A model generated the notes under the pieces. That model searched no databases. It was given only the letters and a program-made list of their open reading frames with translations, and had not been told where the DNA came from. Position numbers and translations under genes: made by a program. 64,000 bases of DNA from a virus: positions 1 through 64,000 of the IMG/VR virus record IMGVR_UViG_3300032331_003707; one strand, 5' to 3'. Positions 4,088-34,020 of the stretch are shown piece after piece (the first letter of the stretch is position 1; each line of letters starts with the position of its first letter).

Positions 4088-4094
4088 TAAAGTT

Positions 4095-5871: not shown

Positions 5872-5909
5872 AATTTGGGTTTTTAAATTAAAGTTATTAT
5901 ATTCATAGT

Positions 5910-7713: not shown

Positions 7714-8765
7714 ATGATGTTATTAAGCAAGACATTGCTGAAATTGTTAGTAGAGTTGATAACTCTAGATTTAGTGGTAAAAAAATACTTTTAACTGGGG
7801 GTGGTGGTTTTATTGGAACATACTTTGTTCATTATTTCACTGCGCTAAATGATTTAGGTATTTTACAAGAGCCATGTAAATTATGTATTGTAGAAAATTT
7901 TATTAGAGGAGTACCTAGTTGGTATGAGTATATCAAAGACAGATCAGATGTTGAAGCTATAGAAGCAGATATTAATTACCCTTTAACTCTTCCTAAGTCA
8001 GACTTTATTATACACGCTGCTACTATAGCTTCACCTACATATTACAGAATGCACCCTATAGAAACAATGGATGCTAATGTAATAGGACTTAGAAATTTAT
8101 TAGATTTCGCAAAAGATAACCCATGTGAGAGCTTATTATTTTTCTCCACTAGTGAAGTATACGGTGACCCAGACCCAGACAATATCCCAACAAAAGAAAC
8201 ATATAGAGGAAATGTTAGTTTCACAGGTCCTAGAGCATGTTATGATGAATCTAAAAGATACGGAGAAACACTATGTGTTAACTTTTATCAACAACATAAC
8301 ATCCCCATTAAAGTAGCTAGACCATTTAACAATTATGGACCTGGGTTAAGAATAACAGATAAACGAGTTATACCAGATTTCTTTAATAATATATTAAATA
8401 ATGAAAAAATAACTATATTATCAGATGGTAAAGCAACTAGAACATTTTGTTATATAGCAGACGCAGTTACCGGATATATTCAAATATTACTTTCAAACCA
8501 TAATGGAGAAGCATTTAATATAGGAACATCTTACCCTGAGATAACAATGTTAGAATTAGCTCAAACTATATCAGAAGTTGTAACTGGTAATAAAAATTTT
8601 GAACATGAATATAAAATAAGTACAGATACTGAATATTTAACTGATAATCCTCAAAGAAGATGTCCTGATCTTACTAAATCAAAATCATTATTAGGGTATG
8701 AACATAATATCAGTCTTAAGGAAGGTTTAACTAGAATTTATAATTACTATAAAAGTAGCATCTAA
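7698..8765 (+). CDS. NDP-glucuronate decarboxylase (UXS-like SDR)
   Basis: TGGGGFIG, STSEVYGDP, GPRACYDESKR, TRTFCY, DNPQRRCPD. Confidence 0.88.
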   Translation: MENMVNDVIKQDIAEIVSRVDNSRFSGKKILLTGGGGFIGTYFVHYFTALNDLGILQEPCKLCIVENFIRGVPSWYEYIKDRSDVEAIEADINYPLTLPKSDFIIHAATIASPTYYRMHPIETMDANVIGLRNLLDFAKDNPCESLLFFSTSEVYGDPDPDNIPTKETYRGNVSFTGPRACYDESKRYGETLCVNFYQQHNIPIKVARPFNNYGPGLRITDKRVIPDFFNNILNNEKITILSDGKATRTFCYIADAVTGYIQILLSNHNGEAFNIGTSYPEITMLELAQTISEVVTGNKNFEHEYKISTDTEYLTDNPQRRCPDLTKSKSLLGYEHNISLKEGLTRIYNYYKSSI

Positions 8766-10096
8766 TGAATATAACAATTATAGGAACAGGTTATGTAGGG
8801 TTAGTTTCTGGAGTATGTTTAGCTTCTAAACAACATAATGTAACTTGTGTAGATATTAGAGAAGAAGTTGTAGATTTACTTAATAATAATAAGCCTCATA
8901 TACATGAAAATGGTTTATCTGAGTTATTAGATCAAACACTTAAAAGTGGTCATTTTAAAGCTACAACAGATTTAAATAACGCTTTAGAACAAAGTGAATT
9001 AGTGATTATTGCTGTTGGAACACCTTCTAAAAATGGTAAAATTAATCTAACCCAAATTAAAAATGCTTGTACCAGCATAGGTAATTTTATTAAGACTAAT
9101 GATAAATTTATATCTGTAGTTGTTAAAAGCACTGTAGTGCCAGGGACTACAGATACATTTGTTAAAGATATAATAGAATCAACAAGTGGTAAGAAATTAG
9201 GAGAATTTGGACTAGGAATGAACCCAGAGTTTTTACGTGAAGGAGAAGCAATAGCAGACTTTCAATACCCAGATAGAATTGTTATAGGATATGAAGATCA
9301 AAAAACTAAAAATTTATTAGAGGAAATATATTCTCCTTGGGATTGTGATAAGATAGCAGTTAATACTAGAACAGCTGAGATGATAAAGTATTCAAACAAT
9401 ACTCTTTTAGCATGTTTAATCTCTATGAATAATGAATTAGCTAATTTAGCGTTTGAATTAGGTAATATTAATTACAATGATGTTATTAAAGGTGTAATTA
9501 GTGATAAAAGATGGAGTCCAATTATTGATAAAACTAGAATTACTCCTACAATAACTACTTATTTTACTCCTGGAGCTGGGTTTGGTGGAAGTTGCTTCCC
9601 AAAAGATGTCCAAGCAATAAGAGCTCAAGGAGAATATTTAGGCTTAAGTATGAATATGACTGATGCAGTTCTATCAGTGAATGATATTCAGCATTATAGA
9701 GTTTTACATTACTTAAAAAAGTATTTTGGAAAATTAACAGATAAAAAAATACTACTATTAGGATTAGCTTTTAAACCTGATACAGATGATATTAGGGAAT
9801 CCAGTGCTTTAAAAATACTATCAGTACTATTAGAAAATAATTGTCAAGTTAAAGCTCATGATCCTATTTCAATGCCTAATACTAAAAAGGAATTTAACAA
9901 TTCTAATTTAGAATTTATAGAAAATTGGAGAGAAGAAATAAACAATGTTGATGCTATTATAATTGGTACAAATTGGCCTGAGTATAAGGATATTAAAGAT
10001 AAAACTAATGTTTTAATATTTGATTCAAAACAATTATTTTCAATTGATGAAGTAAAAAATCATAAATACGCTACTTTTAGTTATAATAAAAAATAA
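8765..10096 (+). CDS. ugd: UDP-glucose/GDP-mannose 6-dehydrogenase
   Basis: IGTGYVG, KSTVVPGT, NPEFLREG, GFGGSCFPKD, LAFKPDTDDIRES. Confidence 0.93.
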   Translation: MNITIIGTGYVGLVSGVCLASKQHNVTCVDIREEVVDLLNNNKPHIHENGLSELLDQTLKSGHFKATTDLNNALEQSELVIIAVGTPSKNGKINLTQIKNACTSIGNFIKTNDKFISVVVKSTVVPGTTDTFVKDIIESTSGKKLGEFGLGMNPEFLREGEAIADFQYPDRIVIGYEDQKTKNLLEEIYSPWDCDKIAVNTRTAEMIKYSNNTLLACLISMNNELANLAFELGNINYNDVIKGVISDKRWSPIIDKTRITPTITTYFTPGAGFGGSCFPKDVQAIRAQGEYLGLSMNMTDAVLSVNDIQHYRVLHYLKKYFGKLTDKKILLLGLAFKPDTDDIRESSALKILSVLLENNCQVKAHDPISMPNTKKEFNNSNLEFIENWREEINNVDAIIIGTNWPEYKDIKDKTNVLIFDSKQLFSIDEVKNHKYATFSYNKK

Positions 10097-10101
10097 ACAA
10101 T

Positions 10102-11289
10102 ATGACAATTAACACTTGTGAGGTTTGTGGAAACACAGAGTTAACACCTGTTTTAGATTTAGGAAATCATCCTATATGTGATGACTTAATTAAAATAGGA
10201 GATGAAAGAAAAAATAAAACATATCCTATTCTAATTAAATACTGTGAAAAATGTGGAACAGCCCATCATACTTACCAAATACCTAAACATCAACTTTTCC
10301 CATCTGATTACCACTACAGAGCAAGATTTACAGCTGATGTATTAGATGGAATGAAAAATTTAGTTAATTATTTATCTAAAAATTTTATTAATTTAAAGGA
10401 TAAAAAAGTATTAGATGTAGGATGTAATGATGGAAGTTTATTAGATTTCTTTAGAGAAAAAGGAGCATCTACTTATGGAATTGATCCAACTGATGCCGCT
10501 TATGAAGCTAAAGAAAAAGAACATGATATCATATGTGATTATTTTAGCCCTGAGTTAGTAAAAGATTATACTAAAGTCGATGTTATAACATTTACCAATG
10601 TGTTTGCTCATATTGAAGATTTAAACCACCTACTTAAAGCAGTATCTACAGTATCTAACCCAGATACTTTATTGGTAATTGAAAATCATTACTTAGGTGG
10701 AGTATTACATCAAAATCAATTTGATACCTTCTATCATGAACACCCAAGAACATATAGTCTAAATAGTTTTGTACACATAGCTAAAACATTAGGATTAGAT
10801 ATACTTTCAGTAGAATTTCCATCTCGTTATGGAGGTAATATTAGAGTAGTCATAGGAGATAAAAAATATCATACTCCAATTGAATCAAATATTGATGAGA
10901 TACTAGAAAAAGAAAAACAATTTATTCATAAATTCAATGAAATGAATGAGTTTATTAAAAATTGGTCTCAAACAAAACGAGATGAAATTTTAGAATTCAT
11001 TAAAGAAAATGGAAAAATAGAAGCAAAAGCATTCCCAGCTAGAGCAGCTATTCCATTAACATTATTAGGATTAGATGAAAATCATATTAAATGTGTATAT
11101 GAAAAACCTGGATCATTAAAAATAGGATATTATGTTCCTGGCACTCGTATTCCTATTGTGAGTGATGATGAGATGGGAGATATATCTATTAAAAATGGAT
11201 TATTAAATAATGCATGGCATATATCAACTGAGATTGGAACTTATTTAAGAAAATTAGGCTTTAACGGAGAGATTATTAATATTATATAG
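10102..11289 (+). CDS. NDP-sugar C-methyltransferase (Zn-binding + SAM-dependent)
   Basis: CEVC...CEKC, LDVGCNDG, NVFAHI, FDTFYHEH, YGGNIR, KIGYYVPGTRIPI. Confidence 0.88.
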   Translation: MTINTCEVCGNTELTPVLDLGNHPICDDLIKIGDERKNKTYPILIKYCEKCGTAHHTYQIPKHQLFPSDYHYRARFTADVLDGMKNLVNYLSKNFINLKDKKVLDVGCNDGSLLDFFREKGASTYGIDPTDAAYEAKEKEHDIICDYFSPELVKDYTKVDVITFTNVFAHIEDLNHLLKAVSTVSNPDTLLVIENHYLGGVLHQNQFDTFYHEHPRTYSLNSFVHIAKTLGLDILSVEFPSRYGGNIRVVIGDKKYHTPIESNIDEILEKEKQFIHKFNEMNEFIKNWSQTKRDEILEFIKENGKIEAKAFPARAAIPLTLLGLDENHIKCVYEKPGSLKIGYYVPGTRIPIVSDDEMGDISIKNGLLNNAWHISTEIGTYLRKLGFNGEIINII

Positions 11290-12216
11290 ATGAATATAAA
11301 ATTAACAATACATTTAATGCCTTGGGAAATTGATAATGCATTATTAACATTTACCCAACTTAAAAAATCATTTTATCATATATCTAAAGATGCCAATGTA
11401 ATTATAGAATCAGTTTTAAATCTATCTTCTAAATTTACTGATTGGGATAAAAGCCAATTACCTAAAGAATTCTTTATAGATAAATACAATGATATATCTT
11501 TATTATTAAATGATTATACTCATATAAAAAGAATATATGATGGAGATGAAGTATATGGTTATTTAAATCTCCAACGTGAAAGTTTATCTAAAGAGATAGA
11601 TTATTATATTGGGGTATGTCCTGATTTTTATTTTAGTGAACATTTACTAGCACTACTAATTGAATCAGCTAAATTAATTTCTAATAAATACTTTGTAATA
11701 ACACCCCAAATATATAAAAGATGGGATCATACCTGGGATGAAATTACTGATAGTAACTATTTAGATGTTCCGTATAGTGAATGGGAAAATTATGATGTAT
11801 ATAAAGTTAGACATCAATTAAAAATGAACAATGAAGACGCATCATTAATACCTGTTCAAAAAAGTAAATGGGCTTGGTGGTTTGATTTATATAATAAAGA
11901 ATTCTATGAAAATTTATGTCCTGTTCATGATGATTGGAAGGGGTATGGTCCTTGGGATTGGTACTCTATGATGTTAAGTGAATATGCTAAACACAATATG
12001 GGATTAGATTTCCAACAATACTTGCTAAAAGAACAAACAATCTTAGACCTATCAGGAGGACCTCTTAAAGATATGGGATTTACATCATACTATAAAAAGT
12101 TTTTAACCCTAATACCAGATGATGCACCCCCAGCCCAAAGAAAGGTATTTGAAAGTAAAATGCAACATTATTTAAATGAAGGAATTAAACAACTTAAAAT
12201 TAAAAAAATAATTTAA
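11290..12216 (+). CDS. Putative glycosyltransferase (GT-A-like)
   Basis: Locus context; 'GYGPWD' C-terminal motif reminiscent of GT2/GT7. Confidence 0.45.
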   Translation: MNIKLTIHLMPWEIDNALLTFTQLKKSFYHISKDANVIIESVLNLSSKFTDWDKSQLPKEFFIDKYNDISLLLNDYTHIKRIYDGDEVYGYLNLQRESLSKEIDYYIGVCPDFYFSEHLLALLIESAKLISNKYFVITPQIYKRWDHTWDEITDSNYLDVPYSEWENYDVYKVRHQLKMNNEDASLIPVQKSKWAWWFDLYNKEFYENLCPVHDDWKGYGPWDWYSMMLSEYAKHNMGLDFQQYLLKEQTILDLSGGPLKDMGFTSYYKKFLTLIPDDAPPAQRKVFESKMQHYLNEGIKQLKIKKII

Positions 12217-13106
12217 TGCACATATTTGCCAATTTTAGAAACCCTGAAAATGATCCTTACTTAGTATTTTTAAAAGAAAAATACCAGGATTATCCTTTTA
12301 CTTTTTGGTATGATAAGTTTCCTGAATCTCAAGACCAATTAAATATAAATCCTTATAATTTTTTATTCATACATGAACCAAATGAATTTTTTGGATATGC
12401 CGCACCTGCTATAAAACTTCAAGATATATACACTGCTATACTATCTTGGGATCAAAATGTTTTAGATAACTGCCAAAATGGAGTTAAATTTACATATAAT
12501 GGTGTTACATTAGATAATACATTTGTAGATCAAATGAAAGATAAAGAAAAAGCATTTGAAATAAGTTTTTTATGTGGTACAAAAAATCTTGTTGAAGGAC
12601 ACATGTTAAGACATAAAGCATATTCTATAAAGGAACAAATTAATATTCCTAACAAATGGTTTTATGTCCTAGATGATTATGATCATGAAAATGGAGTTCG
12701 CCCAGGTTATGGTAACTATAGTAAAGATTTATCTCATATTCCCCCTGGAGTAGACATTATAGGATATGGACGTAGAGTTTTATTTAAAGATAGTATGTTT
12801 AATGTTGTTATTGAAAATGTGAATCAAAAAAACTGGTATAATAAAATAGGAGATGCTTTTTTAAGTAAAACAATTCCATTATATTGGGGATGTTCTAATA
12901 TTAGTGATTTTGGTTATGATGAAAGAGGAATAATTAGATTTAAAGATGAAAATGAACTACTAAATATCACAAATAATCTAACCCCAGATCTATACAACGA
13001 AATGAAACCTTATATTGATTATAATTATGAGATTGCATTGTTAGATTATTTTGAAACTAGAATAAGTGAGTTTTTTGACACATTTATTCAAATAAACAAC
13101 ATATGA
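12216..13106 (+). CDS. Putative fucosyltransferase-like glycosyltransferase (GT10-like)
   Basis: FNVVIEN...KIGDAFLSKTIPLYWG resembles the GT10 motif. Confidence 0.7.
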   Translation: MHIFANFRNPENDPYLVFLKEKYQDYPFTFWYDKFPESQDQLNINPYNFLFIHEPNEFFGYAAPAIKLQDIYTAILSWDQNVLDNCQNGVKFTYNGVTLDNTFVDQMKDKEKAFEISFLCGTKNLVEGHMLRHKAYSIKEQINIPNKWFYVLDDYDHENGVRPGYGNYSKDLSHIPPGVDIIGYGRRVLFKDSMFNVVIENVNQKNWYNKIGDAFLSKTIPLYWGCSNISDFGYDERGIIRFKDENELLNITNNLTPDLYNEMKPYIDYNYEIALLDYFETRISEFFDTFIQINNI

Positions 13107-13585
13107 TATTCCCAGAAGTAAAAATATACACACCCGACGTTTACACTGATTTTAGAGGTGACTTATGGACGTTATGGAAACAAGATGAATTTGAACCTAA
13201 ATTAAATTTTAATCATGATAAAGTTTCTACATCAAGAAAAGATGTTTTAAGAGGTATTCATGGTGATAATAAATCTTGGAAATTAATAACATGTTTATAT
13301 GGTGAAATGTATTTTGTAGTTGTAGATAATAGACCTGATTCCCCAAATTATCTAAAATGGGACTGGGTTATATTAGATGACAGAACTAGAAAATCAGTCT
13401 TAGTACCACCTCAATTTGGAAATGGATTCTATGTCCTAAGTAACCACTCAGTATTTCATTATAAATGGTCATACACAGGGTCATACCCAGACGTAAAAGA
13501 TCAATTTACTTTAAAATGGAATGATTCTAAAATAGGAATAGAATGGCCTAATGACAATCCAATTTTACAAAAAAGAGATAAATAA
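13103..13585 (+). CDS. rfbC: dTDP-4-dehydrorhamnose 3,5-epimerase family
   Basis: DFRG, VLRGIHG, VVVDNRPDSP, LKWNDSKIGIEWP. Confidence 0.9.
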   Translation: MIFPEVKIYTPDVYTDFRGDLWTLWKQDEFEPKLNFNHDKVSTSRKDVLRGIHGDNKSWKLITCLYGEMYFVVVDNRPDSPNYLKWDWVILDDRTRKSVLVPPQFGNGFYVLSNHSVFHYKWSYTGSYPDVKDQFTLKWNDSKIGIEWPNDNPILQKRDK

Positions 13586-13622
13586 TTTGGATTATTATAA
13601 AAATTATATTATATTAAATTAT

Positions 13623-14249
13623 ATGAAAATATTATCACAATACACTAAAGTTAGAGATGTTAAAATAACACCTCAAGAACTTATTGCTTTTGAAGATAGA
13701 GTAAAAGATGCATACGAAGCAGGACAGGTAAAAGGCCCTGTTCATCTATCTAAAAATAATGAAGAACAACTAATAGAATTATTCCAACACATCCACCCAG
13801 ATGATTGGGTTTTTTCAGCTTGGAGAAATCACTATCATGCTTTACTTCATGGGGTTGATCCTGAAAAATTATTCTCATGGATATCTGAGGGTAGAAGTAT
13901 GGGTACTAATAACATTAGTCCTAATTTTTATGCTTCATCTATTGTAGGTGGAATAATTCCCTTATCATTAGGAGCAGCTATGGGATTAAAACGTAAAAAC
14001 TCACCTCGTAGAGTTTGGTGTTTTATAGGAGACATGACTATGGAAACAGGGGTATTTCATGAAGCATATAAATACTCCCAAAATTTTAATTTACCATTAC
14101 AATTCGTAGTTGAGGATAATAACCTAAGCGTTCATACTCCTACTGATATTGCTTGGGGTAAAAGAATGGAAGTGCCTGAGAATGTTATTTATTATTCTTA
14201 TAAGATGTCATATCCTCATCATGGAACAGGTAAATGGGTTAATTTTTAA
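13623..14249 (+). CDS. TPP-dependent E1 alpha-like subunit (short)
   Basis: GPVHLS, RNHYHAL, SIVGG, GDMTMETG...VEDNN TPP motif; start placed after promoter at 13586. Confidence 0.85.
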   Translation: MKILSQYTKVRDVKITPQELIAFEDRVKDAYEAGQVKGPVHLSKNNEEQLIELFQHIHPDDWVFSAWRNHYHALLHGVDPEKLFSWISEGRSMGTNNISPNFYASSIVGGIIPLSLGAAMGLKRKNSPRRVWCFIGDMTMETGVFHEAYKYSQNFNLPLQFVVEDNNLSVHTPTDIAWGKRMEVPENVIYYSYKMSYPHHGTGKWVNF

Positions 14250-14254
14250 TTATT

Positions 14255-14791
14255 ATGAAATACAAAGACGAATTAGTTAGAGCAATGGAATGGCTTGGAG
14301 CCAAACCAAATACAGTATTTACAGGGCAAGCAATCGGTTTTAGTGGTCATGCTATCTCAAATACAATGGAAAAAGTACCTCAAGATAAAAGAATTGAGTT
14401 ACCTGTACTAGAAGAAACCCAATTAGGAATGGCTACAGGAATGGCTATGACGGGGTGGGTTCCTATTACTTGTTATCCTCGGTTTGATTTTTTTATCTTA
14501 GGTTTAAATCAATTAGTTAATCATTTAGATAAAATGCAAGACATGTCTAAAGGAGATATGAAACCAAAAGTTATTATTCGAGTAGCTGTTGGTTCAAAAC
14601 TTCCATTTAGTGCTGGTCCTCAACATACTCAAAACCATACTGAAGCTATAAGAAAAATGCTCACAGAAGTTGAAGTTGTTGAGTTAATAGAGCCTGAACA
14701 AATATTTGAAGCATTCAAAACTGCTTATGAAAGAGAAGATGGTAAGTCAACATTAATTATTGAACACGCAGAGTATTATGGGACAAAATAA
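14255..14791 (+). CDS. TPP-dependent E1 beta-like subunit (pyrimidine-binding domain only)
   Basis: ELPVLE..GMATGMA, NQLVNHLDK, GPQHTQ; 178 aa, no C-terminal domain. Confidence 0.85.
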   Translation: MKYKDELVRAMEWLGAKPNTVFTGQAIGFSGHAISNTMEKVPQDKRIELPVLEETQLGMATGMAMTGWVPITCYPRFDFFILGLNQLVNHLDKMQDMSKGDMKPKVIIRVAVGSKLPFSAGPQHTQNHTEAIRKMLTEVEVVELIEPEQIFEAFKTAYEREDGKSTLIIEHAEYYGTK

Positions 14792-15950
14792 TTTTAATTG
14801 GCCTCTTATTAATGATAATATTTCTAAAACAGATAGAGAAGTATTAGCTGATTTTTGTTTAAACGGAGAACGTTTTACAAACGGACCTAAAGTAAAAGAA
14901 TTCGAAAAAATATGGTCTGAATGGTTAGGAGTCAAACACAGTGTAATGGTCAATTCAGGTGCCTCAGCTAATTATATTTCAATAGCTATGGTTAAAGAAT
15001 TACTAGGTGAAGGAGAAGTTATAGTACCACCTCTAGGATGGACGTCTGATATCTCATCTGTAGCTCAGTTAGGAATGATACCAGTATTTGTGGATATAAG
15101 TTTTAGTAATTTAGCTATTACAGCCGAAAATATTAAACGTGCTATAACTCCTAAAACAAAAGCAATTGTGTTAGTGCACTGTCTAGGTTTTAATGGTATC
15201 AATGATGAAATTATTAAAATAGCTAAAGATAATAATTTAATATTAATTGAAGATTGTTGTGAATCTCATGGTGCTATGTTTGGAGATAAAAAAATAGGCT
15301 CAATAGGAGATATTTCATTATTTTCATTTTATTTTGGCCACCATATAACAACTATTGAAGGTGGAATGGTTTGTATTAATGATTCTAAACTATACGATCT
15401 AGCCAAATTATTCCGCTCACACGGAATGACCAGAGAAGCATCCCCTGAATTGCAGAAACAATATCAAGACTTATACCCTAAACTAAATCCACTATTTACT
15501 TTTGCTGTAGCTGGATTTAATATGAGAAGTACAGAATTAAATGCTGTGTTAGGTATAGAGCAAATGAAACGTATAGATTATAATATTAATAAACGTGTTG
15601 AGAATCTTAAAACATGGCTAGATCATTTAAATTCAAGTAAATTTATGACTAGTTTTACAACCCAAGGAAACAGTAGTTTTGCTTTACCCTTAATACTACA
15701 GTGGTCTAATGTTGATAAATTAAAAGACGTTTGTAGACTATTAGAAGAAGAAAAAGTAGAATATAGACTAGGAACAGCTGGAGGTGGGAATCAAGCACTT
15801 CAACCATACTTAAAAAAGTTTAACCACAGAATTAATGATAATTTACCTGTAGTTGATTATATCCACTCAAATTCACTTTATATTGGTAATCATCCTGAAT
15901 TAGAAAATGAGCAAATTATTAACCTTTGTAATAAATTAAATAATGTTTAA
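14778..15950 (+). CDS. DegT/DnrJ PLP enzyme, ColD/RfbH-like NDP-4-keto-6-deoxyhexose 3-dehydratase
   Basis: MVNSGASAN, EDCCESHGA, SFYFGHHITTIEGG (His in place of the catalytic Lys, typical of the 3-dehydratases). Confidence 0.85.
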   Translation: MGQNNFNWPLINDNISKTDREVLADFCLNGERFTNGPKVKEFEKIWSEWLGVKHSVMVNSGASANYISIAMVKELLGEGEVIVPPLGWTSDISSVAQLGMIPVFVDISFSNLAITAENIKRAITPKTKAIVLVHCLGFNGINDEIIKIAKDNNLILIEDCCESHGAMFGDKKIGSIGDISLFSFYFGHHITTIEGGMVCINDSKLYDLAKLFRSHGMTREASPELQKQYQDLYPKLNPLFTFAVAGFNMRSTELNAVLGIEQMKRIDYNINKRVENLKTWLDHLNSSKFMTSFTTQGNSSFALPLILQWSNVDKLKDVCRLLEEEKVEYRLGTAGGGNQALQPYLKKFNHRINDNLPVVDYIHSNSLYIGNHPELENEQIINLCNKLNNV

Positions 15951-16914
15951 AAATCAAAAAGTTTTAGTAACTGGTGGAGGAGGAATGATTGGTCGCTCAC
16001 TAGTAAAATTTTTATTAAAAAAAGGAGCTAAAGTAACCATAGCAGACTTAACCCAACCCTCAGACTTACCTAAAAAAGTAAAGTATAAAAAAATAGATTT
16101 AAGATACTTTGATCAATGTGAAAAGATCTGTAATGGAATGGATTATGTTTTTAATTTAGTAGGTATTAAAGGCTCACCTAAAATGTGTGCTGAACAACCA
16201 GCAGATTTTATGGTACCGATGCTTCAATTTAATACTAACATGATGGAAGCAGCTCGTAGAGCAGACGTTAAATGGTATTTATATACTAGTTCTGTTGGCG
16301 TTTATGCACCTGCTGACGTATTCAAAGAAGATGATGTGTTAAATACTGTTCCATCTCCTAATGATCGATTTGCGGGTTGGGCTAAAAGAATGGGTGAAAT
16401 GCAAGCTGAAGCATATTCTATTCAATACGGATGGGATAAGGTTTCTATTGTAAGACCTGCTAATGTATATGGAGCATATGACAATTTTAATCCTGCTAAT
16501 GCAATGGTTGTTCCTTCATTAATTAGAAAAGCCCAAGAAAATGATATATTAGAAGTTTGGGGAGATGGCTCAACAATTAGAGATTTTATTCATGCTGATG
16601 ATGTAGCATTAGGTATGTTATTTGCTGTTGAAAACCAAATTACCCAACCACTAAACTTAGGCTCAGGAGAAGGTTACTCAATTAAAGAAGTAGTAGATAT
16701 GGTAGTTAAATACTCTAATAAACCTCTAAAAGTAAAATGGTTAACAGATAAGCCTGCAGGAGATAAAATCCGTTTATTCGATATGACCAGAGCTAAATCA
16801 CATGGATTTAACATCTCAGTATCATTAGAAGAAGGAATTAAAAAAACTACTAAATGGTTTTTAAATAATAAAGAAATTTTAGATAAACGTTATAATGCAT
16901 TTGTAAACCACTAA
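15943..16914 (+). CDS. NAD-dependent epimerase/reductase (GDP-fucose synthase / GDP-mannose 3,5-epimerase-like)
   Basis: TGGGGMIG, RPANVYG..DNF, WGDGSTIRDFIHADD. Confidence 0.82.
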   Translation: MFKNQKVLVTGGGGMIGRSLVKFLLKKGAKVTIADLTQPSDLPKKVKYKKIDLRYFDQCEKICNGMDYVFNLVGIKGSPKMCAEQPADFMVPMLQFNTNMMEAARRADVKWYLYTSSVGVYAPADVFKEDDVLNTVPSPNDRFAGWAKRMGEMQAEAYSIQYGWDKVSIVRPANVYGAYDNFNPANAMVVPSLIRKAQENDILEVWGDGSTIRDFIHADDVALGMLFAVENQITQPLNLGSGEGYSIKEVVDMVVKYSNKPLKVKWLTDKPAGDKIRLFDMTRAKSHGFNISVSLEEGIKKTTKWFLNNKEILDKRYNAFVNH

Positions 16915-17600
16915 TGAAAGATTTTTTAATAACTGGAATTAATAGTGGATTAGGAAAATATCTATATGATAATTTACCTAACTCATTAGGATTAAATAGA
17001 GATAACTTTGCTGCTATAAAAGATGAAAGTTATCAAACTATAATACACTGCGCATTTAATAAAGAAAATACTATTACTGATTATAAGAAGTATTTAGATG
17101 ATAATATTTTTCTTACTCAACGTCTTAAAAATTTAAAATATAATAAATTTATCTATATATCAACTGTAGATGTTTACCAAGAATATCACAATGTGTATTC
17201 TTCTTTTAAGAAATTTGCAGAAACATTATTAGATGAAAACGATTTAATTTTAAGATGTCCTATGATGTTAGGTGACACTATGAAACCTAACCATGCTACA
17301 AAAATAAAAGACAATATCGAATCAATAGGACTATCAGGAAAATCTAAATTTAATTATCTATTAATGGATGATTTAGTTGAGTTTTTTATTAGTGATGATT
17401 ATAAACAATATAAAGGAGTAATTGATTTTGTAGCTAATAGTTTAGTTGAATTAGAAGATGTAAAACAATATTTTAACTCAACTACTAAATTAGGAGAATA
17501 TGTTTATGAGAATAACTTGGAATTTACAAATCCTATTTTTATATTAAATGAAAAGTATAATAAATCATCTTTAGACAATCTAAAACAATATTTTAAATGA
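16914..17600 (+). CDS. Divergent SDR / NAD-dependent epimerase
   Basis: ITGINSGLG, IIHCA, YISTVDVY, YSSFK. Confidence 0.7.
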   Translation: MKDFLITGINSGLGKYLYDNLPNSLGLNRDNFAAIKDESYQTIIHCAFNKENTITDYKKYLDDNIFLTQRLKNLKYNKFIYISTVDVYQEYHNVYSSFKKFAETLLDENDLILRCPMMLGDTMKPNHATKIKDNIESIGLSGKSKFNYLLMDDLVEFFISDDYKQYKGVIDFVANSLVELEDVKQYFNSTTKLGEYVYENNLEFTNPIFILNEKYNKSSLDNLKQYFK

Positions 17601-18547
17601 AAAAACGCATATTAATCTGTGGAGCAACAGGTTTTATTGGTAGAAACTTATTAGATTTCTACCACCAGAAAGATAATTATAATATCAGAGCAACACATTT
17701 TAATCGTCCCGCTATTGAAGGATATGATGGAGTTGAATGGGTTAAAGTTGATTTACGTAATCCCGAAGCCGTAAAACAAACATTGCAAGACGTAGATATT
17801 GTTTTACAATTTGCTGCTACAACATCTGGAGCTAAAGATATCATGACTCGTCCTTATATTCATGTTACAGATAATGCTGTTATGAATAGTTTATTATTAA
17901 GAGAATGTTATGAGCAAAATATTGAACATTTTGTATTCCCAAGTTGTACAGTAATGTATCAACCATCTTCATGTGCTTTAGCAGAATGTGATTTTAATGG
18001 AAATGAAGAATTATTTCCTACTTATTTTGGTGTAGGTAATACTAAAATTTATATTGAGAAAATGTGTGAATTCTTTTCTCGTTTAGGTAAAACTAAACAT
18101 ACTGTTATGAGACATTCAAACATGTATGGACCTTATGATAAATATGATTTAGAACGATCTCATATGTTTGGAGCTACCATTACAAAAGTAATGACTTCTA
18201 CTGATGGGAAGATTAATGTTTGGGGAACCGGAGAAGAAGCACGTGATTTACTTTATGTGGAAGATTTAGTTAAATTTGTTAATTGTGCTCTTGAAAAACA
18301 AGAAAACCTATATGAATTATTTAATGTAGGTGTAGGTAAGGCAATCCAAGTAAAAGATGTAGTTAATAAAATTATTACCCACTCAGGTAAAAATTTAGAA
18401 ATAGTTCATGATTTATCCAAACCAACAATCCCTACATCATTATTTTTAGATTGCACTAAAGCTAAAGAATTATTAGATTGGGAATCAGAAACAGACTTAG
18501 ACACAGGTATTATTAAAACTTTAAATTGGTATAAAGAAAACTTATGA
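17597..18547 (+). CDS. GDP-L-fucose synthase-like SDR
   Basis: CGATGFIG, SNMYGPYD, RSH, WGTGEEARDLLYVED. Confidence 0.82.
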   Translation: MKKRILICGATGFIGRNLLDFYHQKDNYNIRATHFNRPAIEGYDGVEWVKVDLRNPEAVKQTLQDVDIVLQFAATTSGAKDIMTRPYIHVTDNAVMNSLLLRECYEQNIEHFVFPSCTVMYQPSSCALAECDFNGNEELFPTYFGVGNTKIYIEKMCEFFSRLGKTKHTVMRHSNMYGPYDKYDLERSHMFGATITKVMTSTDGKINVWGTGEEARDLLYVEDLVKFVNCALEKQENLYELFNVGVGKAIQVKDVVNKIITHSGKNLEIVHDLSKPTIPTSLFLDCTKAKELLDWESETDLDTGIIKTLNWYKENL

Positions 18548-19554
18548 TTAATGCTTTTATAACAGGTATAACAGGGATGGTTGGCTCACATTTAGCTGAT
18601 TTCCTATTAGAAAATACAGATTGGAAAATTTATGGTTTAGCTAGATGGAATGATTCATTAGAAAATATTGAGCATTTGTCTGAGGAAATTAATAAACGAG
18701 AACGTATTGAACTTATTTATGGAGATTTAAATGATTTAGCTTCCCTTATCACATCAATAGATAAAGCTAAACCAGACTATATTTTTCATTTAGCGGCTCA
18801 ATCGTACCCACAAACAAGTTTTGATGTACCTATAGAAACGCTTCAAACAAATATATTAGGGACGGCTAATTTATTAGAGGCATTGCGTAAATCACCATAT
18901 AAAAATGCTATAACACACGTATGTGCATCTAGTGAAGTATTTGGTAGAGTACCTGCTGATAAACTACCTATTGGGGAAGAAACAAACTTCCACCCAGCAT
19001 CACCTTATGCTATATCTAAAGTTGGAACTGATTTAGTAGGTCGTTATTATGCTGAAGCATACGGAATGACTATTATGACTACTAGAATGTTTACCCATAC
19101 CGGTCCTAGACGTGGAGATGTATTTTCAGAATCAACATTTGCTAAACAAATTGCAATGATTGAAGCGGGGCTGCAAGAACCTAAAATTTATGTAGGTAAT
19201 TTAGATTCACTTAGAACATATGCTGATGTTAGAGATGCTGTTAAAGCATATTATATGTTAGTTACCCATGATCCTAAAGGTGGTGAGTATTATAATATTG
19301 GAGGAACATATACTTGTAAAATTGCAGACATGCTTAACTATTTGATTAGCCAATCAACAATTAAAAATATTGAAATTGTAACAGACCCTGAACGTTTAAG
19401 ACCAATTGATGCTGATTTACAAGTACCTGATACTACAAAATTTCAAACCCATACAGGGTGGTCCCCCGAATACACATTTGAACAGACAATGAATGATCTT
19501 CTCCAATACTGGAGAGATAGAGTTAATTCAGGTCGTAGATTTTTAAGACGATAA
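18544..19554 (+). CDS. gmd: GDP-mannose 4,6-dehydratase
   Basis: ITGITGMVGSHLA, HLAAQS, SSEVFG, SPYAISK, HTGPRRG, GNLDSLR, RLRPID. Confidence 0.9.
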   Translation: MINAFITGITGMVGSHLADFLLENTDWKIYGLARWNDSLENIEHLSEEINKRERIELIYGDLNDLASLITSIDKAKPDYIFHLAAQSYPQTSFDVPIETLQTNILGTANLLEALRKSPYKNAITHVCASSEVFGRVPADKLPIGEETNFHPASPYAISKVGTDLVGRYYAEAYGMTIMTTRMFTHTGPRRGDVFSESTFAKQIAMIEAGLQEPKIYVGNLDSLRTYADVRDAVKAYYMLVTHDPKGGEYYNIGGTYTCKIADMLNYLISQSTIKNIEIVTDPERLRPIDADLQVPDTTKFQTHTGWSPEYTFEQTMNDLLQYWRDRVNSGRRFLRR

Positions 19555-19557
19555 AAT

Positions 19558-20241
19558 ATGCAAGGTATAGTAATTCAAGGCCCTACAACTTATTGTAAAC
19601 AAATAGTTGAACATTATAAACATATTAAACATATTGTTTGGTCAACTTGGGATGATGAACCTGTTGAGAATTTAGAGTATATTAAACAACATATACCTTT
19701 AATAGTTAATGAAAAACCTTCATTTAGCGGGTATTTAAATGTTAATCTACAAGTATTATCTACTTTTAAAGGTATTGAATACCTAAAAAATAAAGAAGTA
19801 ACAGAAATCTTTAAAATTAGAGGAGATGTTATCATTACAGAGATTGATAAAATGTTAGGTCTTCTTAAAGGAAAACAACTTTCATTTTTACAAATGTGTA
19901 AACCCGAAACACGAAAAGATATATACTATGAATTAGTTTACTCTCATTTCTCTCATGATTACCCAGCAGATGTTGTAATTTATGGTTCTACAGATGTTTT
20001 ATATAATGGTTTTAATTTTTATATAGATCAAATGTATGCAATTCCCCCTGAATCTTTAGTAGCTTATAGTTTATTAGGTTATATGGGAGTAGAATTTTTA
20101 TTAGAATATAATCATTTAATTAATAATGGGGTTACTTTTTTCATGGAAGATTGTTTAGCCAATAATATTGATATTCTTTGGTTAAAAAGAAATACAAGTA
20201 TTGTTAATGATACAAAAGATAAAAACATATATGAGTATTAA
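19558..20241 (+). CDS. WavE-like LPS/glycan synthesis protein
   Basis: IVIQGP, VWSTW, NVNLQ..ST..G, KIRGD resemble WavE motifs. Confidence 0.6.
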   Translation: MQGIVIQGPTTYCKQIVEHYKHIKHIVWSTWDDEPVENLEYIKQHIPLIVNEKPSFSGYLNVNLQVLSTFKGIEYLKNKEVTEIFKIRGDVIITEIDKMLGLLKGKQLSFLQMCKPETRKDIYYELVYSHFSHDYPADVVIYGSTDVLYNGFNFYIDQMYAIPPESLVAYSLLGYMGVEFLLEYNHLINNGVTFFMEDCLANNIDILWLKRNTSIVNDTKDKNIYEY

Positions 20242-21592
20242 ATTAATTATATTTGATTTAGATGGTGTTTTAGTTGAAGCAAAAAATATTCATTTTGAAG
20301 CACTTAATAAAGCTTTAGGTAAATATTCTATAACTTGGGATGAACATTTATCTATATATGATGGTTTAAAAACTAATCAAAAATTAGAAATACTAAATGA
20401 ACGAAAAGGTTTACCAAAAGAATCTTTTAATGAAATATGGACAAATAAACAAAAATACACTCTAGAAGCTTTAAGGAATTTAAAATCAAATCCACAACTT
20501 CAAGTATGTATGGACTTGCTAATTAATGATGGTTATAAATTAGCTGTTTGTTCTAATAGTATTCGTAAAACAGTCTTAACTGTATTATCTAAATTTGATA
20601 TTATAGATCGTTTTGATTTAATTTTATCAAATGAGGATATTAAAAACAGTAAACCCCACCCTGAGATTTACTGGAAAGCAATCTCAGAAATGGGTTGCCT
20701 TCCAGAAGAAACACTAATCATAGAAGATTCCCCATATGGTTTATTATCAGCATCAAGAAGTAAATCTCATATTTTTAGAGTTGGCAGTCCAAAAGATGTT
20801 ATTTATCTTAACATAAAGAATAAAATTAATAAAATTAAAGAAAATTATAATATGAAATCACCTGCTTGGAGAGATGAAAAATTAAATGTTTTAATTCCTA
20901 TGGCTGGTGCTGGTTCACGTTTTGAACAAGCTGGTTATACATTTCCTAAACCTCTTATAGATGTTAAAAATAAACCAATGATTCAAGTAGTTGTTGATAA
21001 TTTAAATATTAAAGCCAACTACATATACATTGTTCAAAAATCACATAGAGAAAAATACAATCTAGATACTCTACTTAACCTAATCACTCCCGATTGTAAA
21101 ATAGTAGAAGTTGATGGTTTAACTGAAGGAGCTGCTTGTACAGCATTATTAGCAAAAGAATACATAAATACAAATTCACCTTTATTTTTTGCTAACTCAG
21201 ACCAATTTGTTGAATGGGATTCAAATGAATTTATGTATAAAATGAATGAAACTAATGCTGATGGAGGTATTGTTACATTTGAAGCAACTCACCCTAAATG
21301 GTCATTTGTTAAAGTAAATGAAAAAGGTTTAGTAACAGAAGTAGCTGAGAAAAATCCAATCTCAAATATTGCTACTGTTGGTTATTATTACTGGAAACAT
21401 GGTTCTGATTTTGTTAAATATGCTGAACAGATGATTGATAAAAATATTAGAATAAATAATGAATTCTATGTTTGCCCAGTATTTAACGAAGCTATAGGTG
21501 ATAATATGAAAATTAGAACTTTTAATGTAGAAGGAATGTGGGGTTTAGGTACTCCTGAAGATTTGAAATATTATTTAGAAAATTACAAATGA
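20231..21592 (+). CDS. Fusion of HAD phosphatase and sugar-phosphate nucleotidyltransferase
   Basis: FDLDGV, KPHPEIY, IEDS (HAD); IPMAGAGSRF, PKPLI, EGAACT, LGTPEDL (NTase). Confidence 0.88.
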   Translation: MSIKLIIFDLDGVLVEAKNIHFEALNKALGKYSITWDEHLSIYDGLKTNQKLEILNERKGLPKESFNEIWTNKQKYTLEALRNLKSNPQLQVCMDLLINDGYKLAVCSNSIRKTVLTVLSKFDIIDRFDLILSNEDIKNSKPHPEIYWKAISEMGCLPEETLIIEDSPYGLLSASRSKSHIFRVGSPKDVIYLNIKNKINKIKENYNMKSPAWRDEKLNVLIPMAGAGSRFEQAGYTFPKPLIDVKNKPMIQVVVDNLNIKANYIYIVQKSHREKYNLDTLLNLITPDCKIVEVDGLTEGAACTALLAKEYINTNSPLFFANSDQFVEWDSNEFMYKMNETNADGGIVTFEATHPKWSFVKVNEKGLVTEVAEKNPISNIATVGYYYWKHGSDFVKYAEQMIDKNIRINNEFYVCPVFNEAIGDNMKIRTFNVEGMWGLGTPEDLKYYLENYK

Positions 21593-27842: not shown

Positions 27843-28384
27843 AAGTTATCTAACTGTAACTTCATATGAAGTAGAATATGAAGATAAAAAATACCTAATG
27901 AGTATCGACTATGATAATATCCACAACCTAACCCGGCTATACTTAGAAGATGAAGATGGTAATGAAATAAATGATTTTAAATTAGTAGATAAGTTTCTTC
28001 AAGAAATCAAAATCCAGTCTGCTCCTTACACAACCTAGTTATATTTATTAATATAAATTAAAACCATGGAAGGTGTCACGGAAATCAAATATAATACAGT
28101 TTATACTTGCCTGGGCACTTTCGGGGCTATACACTTTTGGGTTTAGTTTCATAGTGATATATACATTTTCACTGTCTATAGGTTTATTTATAGTATCTTT
28201 GTTTGTTTGGATATTTTTATTTATAATGTTTATGGGAATAACATCTGAATCATTAAAAGTTATGAAGGCCAAATTGAAAAAAAGCAAAACTGAGGAAACA
28301 ACTGAAAATCCTCTCCCTATAAGGAAAAAACCAAAGTATAGAGACGTATGTAATAATAGAGGTTAATAGGATTAATCAATATTT

Positions 28385-28669
28385 ATGGTCATGGAAAACG
28401 AGATTAAATCTAGCAGTTATGGTGAGACTTTCCTAAGTAAGCTTAAAGAGCAATCATTCACAATCATTATCTTAGTTGGCATAATGTACTACCAAAACAC
28501 TCTGTTCAATAAGCAGATGGATGAGTATAGACAGATGATTCAAGAGAAGGAAGAGTTGGTACTAAAGCTAACAGACGAAGAAAGAGCTCGTTTGGTTGAA
28601 CGTGAAAAGTACTTAATTGGCCAACGAGATATATTCATAGAAGACCTCAAAGAAAGAGCAAACAAATAA
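28385..28669 (+). CDS. Membrane-anchored coiled-coil protein (possible holin-like)
   Basis: One TM (FTIIILVGIMYY) plus coiled coil; AATATTTAT motif at the start. Confidence 0.45.
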   Translation: MVMENEIKSSSYGETFLSKLKEQSFTIIILVGIMYYQNTLFNKQMDEYRQMIQEKEELVLKLTDEERARLVEREKYLIGQRDIFIEDLKERANK

Positions 28670-31170: not shown

Positions 31171-31195
31171 TTTTACGACGATAATTATCCTTTTT

Positions 31196-31205
31196 AATAT
31201 GTATT
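31196..31205 (+). promoter_or_regulatory. Putative late promoter motif AATAT(T/G)TAT
   Basis: Also at ~23613, 25573, 28378, 30748, 56564; related TATATTTATA at ~2418, 60950, 63486. Confidence 0.5.
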
Positions 31206-31227
31206 AGTAACAAACTAGTTTAAAATT

Positions 31228-32061
31228 ATGTTACTTAAAAACGGATCAAAAGGAGAAGAAGTAAAGTTACTTCAAGAAAAATTAGGTTTAGGTATTGATG
31301 GTATATTTGGACCAGGCACTGAAGCTAAAGTAAAAGAATGGCAAGCTGCAAATGGATTAGCAGCGGATGGTATAGTAGGACCAGGAACATGGGGTAAGAT
31401 GTTTGGAACAGCAGCTCCAGTAGTTACACCTGCATCTGCTCCAGTAGCAATCCCACCAAGTTCATTTAAATTAGCTGCCTTAAAGGGACATATCCCTGAT
31501 GCTGTAATAGCTCAAATACCTGAAACAGCAGCTAAATTCAATATAACAAATTCACTACGTTTAGCTCATTTCTTAGCACAATGTGGACATGAGTCAGGTG
31601 GATTTAAAGCAATAAGTGAAAACTTAAACTACTCAGCTGATGGTTTAAAAAGAATATTTGGAAAATATTTCCCTGGTGATCTAGCTGCTTCATACGCTCG
31701 CCAACCAGAAAAAATTGCATCTCGTGTTTACGGAGCAAGAATGGGTAATGGTGATGAATCAACAGGTGAAGGATATAAATATCGTGGACGTGGTTATATC
31801 CAATTAACTGGAAAGTCTAATTATACTGGTTTTGCTAAATTCATAGGTGAAGACACAGTTGCAAACCCTGATTTAGTAGCAAATAAATACCCGCTAGCAT
31901 CAGCGGCATTTTTCTTCGATTCAAATAAATTATGGTCAATATGTGATAAAGGAGCTGATGAAGCAACTGTCACTGCGGTTACTAAACGAGTTAACGGCGG
32001 TACAATTGGTTTACCAGATCGTATAAAGCATTTTAACGAGTACTATAATTTATTGAAATAA
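31228..32061 (+). CDS. Endolysin: peptidoglycan-binding domain + GH19 lysozyme/chitinase
   Basis: DGIFGPGT/DGIVGPGT repeats; AHFLAQCGHESG, ENLNYS, YRGRGYIQLTG, TKRVNGG. Confidence 0.93.
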   Translation: MLLKNGSKGEEVKLLQEKLGLGIDGIFGPGTEAKVKEWQAANGLAADGIVGPGTWGKMFGTAAPVVTPASAPVAIPPSSFKLAALKGHIPDAVIAQIPETAAKFNITNSLRLAHFLAQCGHESGGFKAISENLNYSADGLKRIFGKYFPGDLAASYARQPEKIASRVYGARMGNGDESTGEGYKYRGRGYIQLTGKSNYTGFAKFIGEDTVANPDLVANKYPLASAAFFFDSNKLWSICDKGADEATVTAVTKRVNGGTIGLPDRIKHFNEYYNLLK

Positions 32062-32069
32062 TACATTGA

Positions 32070-33176
32070 ATGAAAAATCTACCTAAAGAAGAATTATTAA
32101 GTAGACTTGAAGCGATTAATAGAAGTAATGCTATTATATACTTTGACCTTAATGGAGTTATATTAGGAGTTAATGACATTTTTTTAGAAGCAATGGGTTA
32201 TGGTAAAGGCAACCATGACGATTTAGTCGGTAAACACCATAGTATTTTTGTATGTGATGATTACGCAAGATCACTTGAATATGAAAAGTTTTGGGACATC
32301 TTAAGAAGCGGTAAACACTATCAAGGTGAGTTTGAAAGAAGAAAAAAGGATGGAAGTCTTATTAATCTTCAAGCAACTTACAATCCTATTTTTAATGAGG
32401 ATAATAAGATTACCAAGATAATGAAGATTGCTACTGACATTAGTTTAATTGTTAAAAGCAAGAATCAAATAGATGCAATCAACAGAAGCACAGCCCTTAT
32501 TAATTTTAACACTGATGGGTTTATAACAGAAGTTAATTCTATATTTTTAGAAACCATGGGATATAAATCCAATGAAAAGTCTAAAGTCATTGGAAAACAT
32601 CATAGTGTTTTTGTTAGTTATGAGTATTCTAAATCTGATGAATATGTTAAGTTTTGGGAGAATTTAAAAAAAGGTAAGTACTTTGATGGGATATTTGAAA
32701 GAAAAAAAGTAGATGGTTCCACTGTCTATCTACAAGCATCTTATAATCCTGTATTTGATAGTAAAGGAAATATTACTGATGTAGTTAAGATTGCTACTGA
32801 TGTTACGGATGCTGTGAACAATAAAAAGAAAATAGATGATCTTTCAAAGAACCTACAAACAGAATTAGATAACTCCCAGAAACTCAAGAACGCAATTGAG
32901 ATTGAAAAGGATGCTGCTTTGAACGACTTGGATGTGATGATGAAGAAAAGTCAAAGTGAATTAATACGAACTATTGTTAAAGTTGCATTGGCTGTCATAG
33001 TTGGAGTTGGAGTTGTGACAACAGCCTTATATTGGATGGCCATTATAACAAATCAAGACACACAAATTATTGGCTCTACTTGGAGCAACATGTTTAGTGT
33101 ACTGCTAACAAACGCATTTTCAATAGTTGGAACAATTATGGGTATTAAGTACGCAACACAAGATGGAAAAAAATAA
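32070..33176 (+). CDS. Tandem PAS-PAC domain protein with coiled coil and two C-terminal TM helices
   Basis: Two repeats of AINRS.A.I.F...G.I..VN..FL..MGY...GKHHS.FV...FW..L..G...G.FER.K.DGS...LQA.YNP.F...KIATD; no MCP or kinase domain. Confidence 0.85.
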   Translation: MKNLPKEELLSRLEAINRSNAIIYFDLNGVILGVNDIFLEAMGYGKGNHDDLVGKHHSIFVCDDYARSLEYEKFWDILRSGKHYQGEFERRKKDGSLINLQATYNPIFNEDNKITKIMKIATDISLIVKSKNQIDAINRSTALINFNTDGFITEVNSIFLETMGYKSNEKSKVIGKHHSVFVSYEYSKSDEYVKFWENLKKGKYFDGIFERKKVDGSTVYLQASYNPVFDSKGNITDVVKIATDVTDAVNNKKKIDDLSKNLQTELDNSQKLKNAIEIEKDAALNDLDVMMKKSQSELIRTIVKVALAVIVGVGVVTTALYWMAIITNQDTQIIGSTWSNMFSVLLTNAFSIVGTIMGIKYATQDGKK

Positions 33177-33206
33177 TAAAGAAGAAATAAACGAGAAAGA
33201 GAAATA

Positions 33207-33809
33207 ATGGAAATACTAATCCCAGTCATAATTGCTTTAATTACATCTGTATTTGGTCCTATATTAATGGAATGGGCAAAAAATAAACTCAGCAAAAAAT
33301 CAGCTGATCCAATGCCTGATGCAATTAAATATAATGAGCAAATTGAGCATCAATTAGATATAATGCTTGATGAATTAGACTGTGATCAAATATTCATAGC
33401 CCAATTCCACAATGGTGGTCATTTCTACCCAACTGGAAAATCTATCCAGAAATTTTCTATATTCTATGAGGTATTAAGTCCAAATATTGAATCAGTTAAA
33501 AACGTTTATCAAAATATACCTGTATCATTATTTAATAAACCATTATCTGAATTATACGAAAATGGTGAGGTAATAATAGAGGATGCTGAACATAACCCAT
33601 CATATCTTCTTAATATGACTACTGGTGGTAAATGTAAATCAATTTATTTATTAGCATTAACTGACTTAGATGGACGTATTGTAGGTGTTATGGGTATCCA
33701 CTATATTGAAAATAAACATAAACTGGTTAAAGACGAGTGGATATTTGTTCGTCAAAAGGTAGGTGCAATTGGTAATATTATTAGTAATTACTTACATAGT
33801 AAAAAATAA
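33207..33809 (+). CDS. N-terminal TM + GAF-like domain protein (holin/T-like candidate)
   Basis: TM segment, then LDELDCDQIFIAQFHNG...KSIYLLALTDLDGRIVGVMGIHY GAF-like pattern. Confidence 0.55.
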   Translation: MEILIPVIIALITSVFGPILMEWAKNKLSKKSADPMPDAIKYNEQIEHQLDIMLDELDCDQIFIAQFHNGGHFYPTGKSIQKFSIFYEVLSPNIESVKNVYQNIPVSLFNKPLSELYENGEVIIEDAEHNPSYLLNMTTGGKCKSIYLLALTDLDGRIVGVMGIHYIENKHKLVKDEWIFVRQKVGAIGNIISNYLHSKK

Positions 33810-34020
33810 AATATATAATTTTCTTAAATAACATTTGGCCTTCGGGTCATTTTTTATTATATTACGGGTATGAATAAAAAACAAGATAGAGAAGAAATTA
33901 TATTTGTTGTATTAGCATTATTAACAACTCTGTGGATGGTTTTTTGCTAAATTACCCCAATTCTTTATCCGAGATTCTGAAATTAGATTTTGTATCTTTA
34001 TAGTATAAGATTTAAAACAT

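Follow-up and report, generated by a model that had tools for sequence, protein, structure and literature searches.

The endolysin–B–C unit and the architecture of protein B

The window, as the DNA analysed here is called, covers the leading 64 kb of a 100,345-bp IMG/VR virus record (IMGVR_UViG_3300032331_003707; ~62% complete, ~30% G+C) that belongs to an uncultured freshwater phage. Its plus strand carries an operon-like unit in which an endolysin (A) is followed by protein B, protein C and a terminator-like hairpin. Protein B, which joins two PAS domains to a hairpin of two transmembrane (TM) helices, is the main subject of this work. A sequence-only reading of the window had proposed that B and C form a sensor-controlled holin/antiholin pair. 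The three open reading frames (ORFs) that it described were recovered at the same positions, with B starting 8 nt past the endolysin stop and C starting 30 nt after B, and the terminator that it placed at ~33837 was found as a hairpin (33836-33849) followed by a T-run. The features of the unit are given below.

31192-31206, plus strand: promoter-like motif TTTTAATATGTATTA, 15 nt, 5' of endolysin A (repeated motif)
31228-32061, plus strand: endolysin A, PG_binding_1 and GH19, 277 aa (Pfam and PHROG matches, hydropathy)
32070-33176, plus strand: protein B, PAS-PAS, long helix and two-TM hairpin, 368 aa (Pfam, structure model, hydropathy, ~160 homologous loci)
32127-32819, plus strand: B residues 20-250, tandem PAS domains, cytoplasmic (PAS_3/PAS_9)
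32805-33044, plus strand: B residues 246-325, continuous coiled-coil-like helix running into TM1 (structure model, hydropathy)
33060-33158, plus strand: B residues 331-363, invariant loop and TM2 block TQIIGSTWSNMFSVLLTNAFSIVGTIMGIKYAT (alignment, codon variants)
33207-33809, plus strand: protein C, N-terminal TM helix and GAF domain, 200 aa (structure model, VIA, Foldseek, hydropathy)
33836-33857, plus strand: terminator-like hairpin TGGCC-TTCG-GGTCA (33836-33849) and T-run (sequence)

A is a GH19-type phage endolysin, with a Glyco_hydro_19 catalytic domain (PF00182, E = 1e-9), a PG_binding_1 domain (PF01471, E = 5e-14) and a match to the endolysin family phrog_181 (E = 2e-69). No TM or signal-anchor-release segment was found in A by hydropathy, so that the enzyme is soluble and a holin is therefore required.

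Pfam identified two PAS domains in B, with PAS_3 (E = 4e-25) matching in two stretches and PAS_9 matching as well. In the AlphaFold2 (AF2) model of B (predicted local distance difference test score, pLDDT, 84), PAS1 (residues 21-123) and PAS2 (142-244) are connected by a linker helix, and a single unbroken helix (246-326) becomes TM1 and is followed by a short loop and TM2 (332-363). Hydropathy placed the TM helices at residues 302-320 and 341-359, and the charges flanking them predict an N-in/C-in topology. Both PAS folds were present in the model, which matched MmoS (3ewk) in Foldseek with E = 4e-15. AF2, hydropathy and Pfam therefore agree with the sequence-only reading that B has a coiled coil and two C-terminal TM helices and no signalling or kinase domain. 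Its term 'chemoreceptor-type' also proved apt, since the nearest cellular relatives of the PAS pair are repeats of multi-PAS proteins (40-46% identity), and 4 of the 10 that were scanned carry a methyl-accepting chemotaxis protein (MCP) signalling domain and 1 of the 10 a GGDEF domain. B shares with Aer the order of a PAS sensor and a membrane hairpin, and Aer is among its sequence matches in the PDB. Unlike Aer and the multi-PAS chemoreceptors, B stops after the hairpin and has no HAMP or MCP signalling domain. The label of MCP, which Joint Genome Institute annotation gives to homologs of B, was accordingly rejected for B, which has no MCPsignal (PF00015) or HAMP match and ends 8 residues past TM2.

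The best solved matches to the PAS domains of B were MmoS, Aer, NifL, DosP and FixL. By sequence, the best PDB matches were the flavin adenine dinucleotide (FAD)-PAS proteins MmoS, Aer and NifL, at E values of 1e-7 to 1e-5 only. In a pairwise alignment, PAS2 of B has SVFVSYEYSKS where Aer has NMVRHPDMPK, the stretch that we take to hold the flavin-contacting residues of Aer. Sensing of redox state or O2 through FAD or heme in the PAS domains of B is thus only a lead. An internal start at M290/M291, giving an 80-aa hairpin-only product as in dual-start holins, was rejected as a general feature because the methionine is not conserved. Database entries of 81 aa for the hairpin resemble internal-start or truncated gene calls.

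Protein B and its hairpin in related phages

A scan of viral contigs returned 180 relatives of B, of which the best 80 (84-95% identity) are counted here as two-PAS loci; together with a single-PAS set, B was found in ~160 viral loci in total. The two-PAS loci have more than 30 different gene orders, with B staying among lysis genes. An 82-96-aa two-TM holin-like gene with a charged tail was found within 2.2 kb of B in 71 of the 80 loci and directly adjacent to it in 65. Five kinds of endolysin adjoin B in all, namely that of the window, Phage_lysozyme, Peptidase_M15_3, GH19 without a binding domain, and PG_binding_1 with an unknown catalytic part, and Phage_holin_4_1-like proteins are also encoded around B. 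The single-PAS form of B (~250 aa) occurs in the same lysis-gene contexts. Judged by gene order, B belongs with lysis genes well beyond the window, and the linkage of a PAS-TM gene to an endolysin that had been pointed out there is conserved in relatives. Two further neighbours were named from sequence alone: a putative unimolecular spanin-like protein (158-166 aa, with a lipoprotein-type Cys and a C-terminal TM helix), directly 5' of B in 11 loci (such as L002:1719-2195 and L012:2648-3148), and a 99-aa Lys-rich protein.

The window encodes a member of this holin-like family at a distance from the unit.

58723-58986, minus strand: 88-aa two-TM protein (TM helices 20-38 and 48-66) with a charged tail, candidate canonical holin of this phage (family similarity)

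This protein is 29-33% identical to the B-flanking holin-like family (E = 9e-11 and 4e-5) and 50% identical to the copy that directly follows a single-PAS B (L218). In a complete 159-kb relative with terminal repeats, 31 kb separate C from the GH19 endolysin, which is followed by an 81-aa two-TM member of the family and an M15 peptidase. The candidate holin gene is flanked by a gene for a putative ClpP-like protein, so called from its sequence (59022-59594), and by a gene for a protein with a TM helix and a coiled coil (57952-58347).

B is not a fixed part of the cassette. In 21 closely related contigs that lack B, the endolysin stop lies 1-16 nt 5' of the start of C, and in the window B fills exactly this short gap. 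DNA contigs from an independent freshwater run contained the exact B-less joint (32062->33175) alongside the B-bearing form, and the same run contained an in-frame skip of 366 nt (32146->32513) that would remove one PAS unit. The B-less junction and the 366-nt deletion indicate that B is polymorphic in natural populations, both by presence or absence and by repeat number. On the evidence of these junctions, B is an accessory gene, a clean and optional insertion between the endolysin and C. Parts of B are matched, with 0-3 differences, by contigs from freshwater and lake RNA libraries; carry-over of DNA is possible, and these contigs are a weak sign that B is expressed, while the stretches that they miss carry no weight.

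The loop and TM2 of B showed no amino-acid change across their 33 residues in 159 copies, while the 99 nt that encode them occurred in 100 distinct versions. Residues 331-363 remained unchanged in an alignment with rows down to 64% identity to the B of the window. The nucleotide variants include AGY/TCN switches at serine and CTN/TTR switches at leucine, and synonymous sites are saturated. A hundred nucleotide versions without an amino-acid replacement place the constraint on the protein and not on the DNA, and this constraint, as the codon variants indicate, is far beyond the needs of a membrane anchor. TM2 has a stripe of Ser and Thr with a period of four (S339, S343, T347, S351, T355) and a GxxxG motif. 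The hairpin family was met only on viral contigs, and in a representative search the C-terminal part of B was found only in B's own family. With its 33 frozen residues, the hairpin lends itself well to mutagenesis and to the search for partners.

Searching with the C-terminal 83 residues of B, and then with a divergent match, yielded a second group of proteins (D) on 317 further viral contigs. D proteins (181-218 aa, ~190 as a rule) begin with a small N-terminal domain and end, after a long coiled coil, in the hairpin known from B, with 64% identity to B across 109 residues. In 57 of the 60 loci with enough upstream sequence, D lies directly 3' of genes for a PAS/TM histidine kinase and a 148-aa receiver-only regulator. 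The kinases have a TM or PAS-PAS sensor and HATPase_c (PAS and HATPase_c in L247, L252 and L307), and the receiver has Response_reg only, with no output domain (L247:2803-3246), so that kinase and receiver together make up a two-component system. A receiver without an output domain would therefore exert its control by protein contact. Recognised lysis genes were found within 2.5 kb of D in 37 of 80 D loci. The PAS domains of B are 40-52% identical to those of phage histidine kinases, and no receiver or kinase domain was found in the B loci or in the 100 kb of the window's virus record. Since the hairpin of B also ends the D proteins that are encoded right behind a kinase and a receiver, B looks like a one-gene fusion of sensor and membrane effector, the counterpart of the three-gene kinase/receiver/D unit, with the phosphorelay bypassed. 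The presence of sensor and hairpin in the single chain of B is Rosetta-stone evidence that the two work together. In the D operon (L245-L324, e.g. L247:1574-3827), a 62-aa DUF2892-like membrane protein, as read from its sequence, often precedes, and a 176-aa unknown protein follows.

A proposed role for protein B in lysis timing

We consider B to be, with fair probability, an optional sensor-coupled membrane component of the phage lysis machinery, coupling a cytoplasmic signal to holin-dependent permeabilisation. The hairpin is kept beside holin genes in related phages, so B probably ties the time of host bursting to an intracellular signal. Architectures, folds, gene order, the fusion relationship and the selection that acts on the hairpin are established here, and from them we infer as follows how B may act on lysis, what signal it may read and what its hairpin may contact. 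The two cytoplasmic PAS domains would be joined by the rigid helix to the N-in/C-in membrane hairpin, and a change of ligand or of redox state at the PAS domains would travel along the helix. The hairpin would then alter the time of permeabilisation by restraining or promoting the true holin, as an antiholin-like protein or a pro-holin; alternatively, it may disturb the membrane enough to trigger the true holin. In this phage, the insertion of B has separated an endolysin gene and a C gene that lie 1-16 nt apart in close relatives. Two features of antiholins were seen in B, which is optional in relatives and is usually the direct neighbour of a holin-like gene. More tentatively, and with slightly more doubt than confidence, we suggest that widespread aquatic phages, probably of Bacteroidota, read the state of the infected cell, with a PAS fusion or a kinase and receiver signalling to an invariant, phage-only hairpin that gates holin-dependent lysis, in this clade beside a second small-molecule sensor, C.

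Lysis timing sets the burst size and fitness of a phage. Its known controls are the clock built into the holin and the inhibition triggered by superinfection in T4, ICP1 and N4. If B, or the whole phage two-component system, is wired to lysis as proposed, phages would set the time of lysis by how the host stands in metabolism or redox state, and lysis timing would have a signal-transduction input without characterised precedent. This would also pose a testable question of signal and mechanism in abundant lake and marine phages, and would offer a compact ligand-gated membrane switch.

Several observations weigh against this role in lysis. The ~160 B loci all come from related phages, and the number of independent events is therefore well below 160; expression alone, moreover, is often the reason why accessory genes cluster by lysis genes. 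The holin-like neighbours form a very variable family (mean column identity 36%), and an invariant TM2 beside a variable holin argues against tight co-adaptation of their TM helices. These holin-like genes have no Pfam or PHROG family, and that of the window lies on the opposite strand, 25 kb from the endolysin and B. No homolog of B with known function was found. The search of PHROGs with B gave nothing better than E = 0.028, and GenBank phages gave three partial B-like matches only, none of them in a studied phage. The ~190-aa D proteins have no PHROGs family and no homolog in GenBank phages.

It is also conceivable, if rather unlikely, that B itself forms the hole, as a signal-gated holin or pinholin in which the polar TM2 lines a channel that the PAS domains hold closed or open. 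Class II holins and pinholins likewise have two TM helices and both termini inside, the Ser/Thr/Asn face and GxxxG motif of TM2 would suit a channel, and an invariant TM2 next to a variable holin-like family fits self-assembly better than binding of a partner. Against this, B is dispensable in close relatives, a separate holin-like gene is almost always present, and holins usually evolve fast while the hairpin of B is frozen. Neither Pfam nor PHROGs linked B to a holin family (E <=0.1).

Somewhat less likely again is that B has no part in lysis and is a membrane-tethered sensor or decoy, acting against host PAS signalling, respiration or another membrane machine from a region that tolerates accessory genes. 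The kinship of the PAS pair to cellular multi-PAS chemoreceptor and GGDEF proteins would agree with this, an invariant TM2 would suit the binding of a conserved host membrane protein, and 43 of the 80 D loci have no recognised lysis gene within 2.5 kb. The retention of B in lysis cassettes through the many rearrangements, mostly with a holin-like gene adjoining, speaks for lysis, as does a hairpin family confined to viral contigs.

The pairing of B and C as a dedicated holin and antiholin, as the sequence-only reading proposed, is very improbable and largely refuted by synteny: the two are adjacent in one operon-like unit in the window, a divergent C is directly 5' of B in locus L077 (followed by a holin-like gene and a lysozyme) and C resembles T-type holin models, but the order endolysin-B-C recurs in only 1 of the 80 two-PAS loci, L077 is the one other locus in which C adjoins B, neither arrangement occurs in the single-PAS set, most of the 449 C relatives have no B nearby, and the usual neighbour of B is the two-TM holin-like gene.

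Compared with described systems, the proposed role of B is closest in outline to lysis inhibition, as known for the T4 holin T with the antiholins RI and RIII (PMC11413866, PMC8385771) and for TeaA/ArrA of ICP1 (PMC7182436). There, too, lysis is retimed upon a signal by dispensable accessory proteins that are associated with the membrane and adjoin the holin or act on it. RI of T4 senses in the periplasm without a PAS domain, whereas the PAS sensors of B are cytoplasmic, and the two-TM hairpin of B has no sequence relation to RI, RIII or ArrA. The phage kinase-receiver-hairpin unit has a parallel in Gram-positive bacteria, where a two-component system is likewise wired to holin-like membrane proteins. 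Its regulator LytR acts through DNA binding, i.e. on transcription, unlike the phage receiver, which has no output domain. In the bacterial system, LytSR and the holin/antiholin-like proteins LrgAB/CidAB control murein-hydrolase-dependent lysis (PMC3507848), and no sequence similarity of the phage unit to this system was found. The literature searched, in which many subscription journals were not covered, contained no description of a PAS or GAF domain with a holin, antiholin or endolysin, nor of a phage two-component lysis system, which agrees with the remark in the sequence-only reading that the architecture was not recognised from described lysis systems. None of the systems compared here, or with C below, joins a PAS sensor or a phage-borne phosphorelay to a membrane protein of a lysis cassette.

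Protein C and the surrounding genome

C was confirmed as a TM protein with a GAF-like domain, having a TM helix at residues 3-21 and a GAF fold at residues 37-200. Its AF2 model (pLDDT 85) gave a VIA Z score of 16.1 to 6mgh (140 aligned residues, root-mean-square deviation 2.5), over 100 chains reached Z >=8, and Foldseek gave E = 1e-7. C is thus a GAF protein by structure; no Pfam GAF match was found for C at the sequence level, and the related Atlas clusters are 89-100% viral, some of them carrying PF01590. Viral contigs encode 449 relatives, with identities as low as 48%, and in all of them the N-terminal TM helix is conserved and the motif QFHNGGHFYPTGKSIQKFS does not vary.

Among viral models in BFVD, the model of C matched phage 'GAF domain-containing' proteins best. 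It also matched models annotated as class III/T holins (Proteus phages Stubb and phiP4-3, Serratia phage PS2; E = 2.6e-7 to 5e-5) and uncharacterised proteins of Tenacibaculum and Polaribacter phages. The analogy to the T4 holin T drawn in the sequence-only reading has structural support because of these holin matches, which also agree with its statement that T4 T has a GAF-fold domain, a statement that did not appear in the literature searched. The likeness stops at the TM plus GAF-like architecture. Neither Pfam (Phage_holin_T included) nor PHROGs assigned C to a holin family (E <=0.1), the genes that usually surround C are not lysis genes, and C lacks the N-terminal cytoplasmic segment of T. 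Only two residues precede the TM helix of C and lysines follow it, which predicts an N-out/C-in topology with the GAF domain in the cytoplasm, the reverse of T4 T. With no family match and an inverted predicted topology, membership of C among T4-type class III holins was rejected, the fold alone being alike. In architecture, the precedent nearest to C is SpoIISA, a Bacillus subtilis toxin with a cytoplasmic GAF domain anchored to the membrane; cells that express it suffer membrane damage, and a holin-like action has been proposed for it (PMC3057836). SpoIISA differs in having three TM helices and the antitoxin SpoIISB, was not among the listed fold matches of C, and showed no sequence similarity to it.

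The gene neighbourhood of C changes with distance from the window. Among the 80 C loci nearest to that of the window, the 22 with the greatest likeness to it (71-91% identity) directly follow the GH19 endolysin. Relatives at 48-64% identity nearly all follow a gene for a 189-aa zinc-ribbon protein, often with overlapping codons, in a region with a deoxyribonucleotidase and a NadR-like gene nearby, which in phage immuto lies beside the primase and exonuclease. The window's own record (86190-86756, locus L162) keeps the 189-aa zinc-ribbon gene without C, and an unrelated 159-aa ORF now follows it, so that C has moved. A position of C behind tail-fibre genes, like that of T4 t, was rejected, as the large upstream protein in relatives matches the NadR-like protein of immuto and not a fibre. 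In GenBank phages only four distant C matches were found, none of them near annotated lysis genes.

C may act as a holin or lysis regulator in this clade, a view that we hold tentatively. The tight coupling of endolysin and C, an Amidase_2 endolysin directly 5' of a C of 50% identity, and the order C, B, holin-like gene and lysozyme in L077 suggest such a link. There is a serious, though less than even, prospect that C is instead no lysis protein, and that its membrane-tethered cytoplasmic GAF domain binds a small molecule, e.g. a nucleotide signal, with the endolysin next to it by chance in this clade. The setting of the distant relatives in the primase/NadR/deoxyribonucleotidase region points in this direction, the invariant QFHNGGHFYPTGKSIQKFS suggests a site for a ligand or partner, and both the predicted topology and the missing Phage_holin_T match set C apart from T. 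A chance position is harder to reconcile with C lying 1-16 nt from the endolysin in 22 related contigs, including the one that also carries B, with a C behind a different type of endolysin and another preceding B and a holin-like gene, with the fold similarity to annotated class III holins, and with the example of SpoIISA, in which TM helices and a cytoplasmic GAF domain disrupt membranes.

The cultured phage nearest to the window is Flavobacterium phage immuto (160 kb), and many freshwater metagenomes contain DNA near-identical to the window. The 'late-type motif' reported before A is real and repeated, but nothing marks it as late. TTTTAATATGTATWA has exactly two copies in the window, at 30744, before the gene preceding A, and at 31192, and a near-copy at 23609 also precedes an ATG. 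The shorter TTAATATGTA occurs three times on the plus strand of the 100-kb record (23611, 30746 and 31194), each time 15-30 nt 5' of an ATG, and is a candidate promoter class. The Bacteroidota promoter pattern TTTG-N18-20-TAnnTTTG was not enriched in the window (1 match, 2 expected).

Genes for RNA repair, nucleotide metabolism and sugar-nucleotide metabolism are present in the window, and a block on the plus strand (2654-21592) is devoted to sugar nucleotides and glycans, with two glycosyltransferases, an epimerase, a UDP-glucose dehydrogenase, an aminotransferase and a HAD hydrolase fusion. Upstream of the unit, also on the plus strand, are a 97-aa membrane ORF that starts at GTG and has three hydrophobic segments (28073-28366) and a 94-aa ORF with one TM helix and a coiled coil (28385-28669), a 93-96% identical copy of which lies ~1.5 kb 3' of C in loci L082 and L109.

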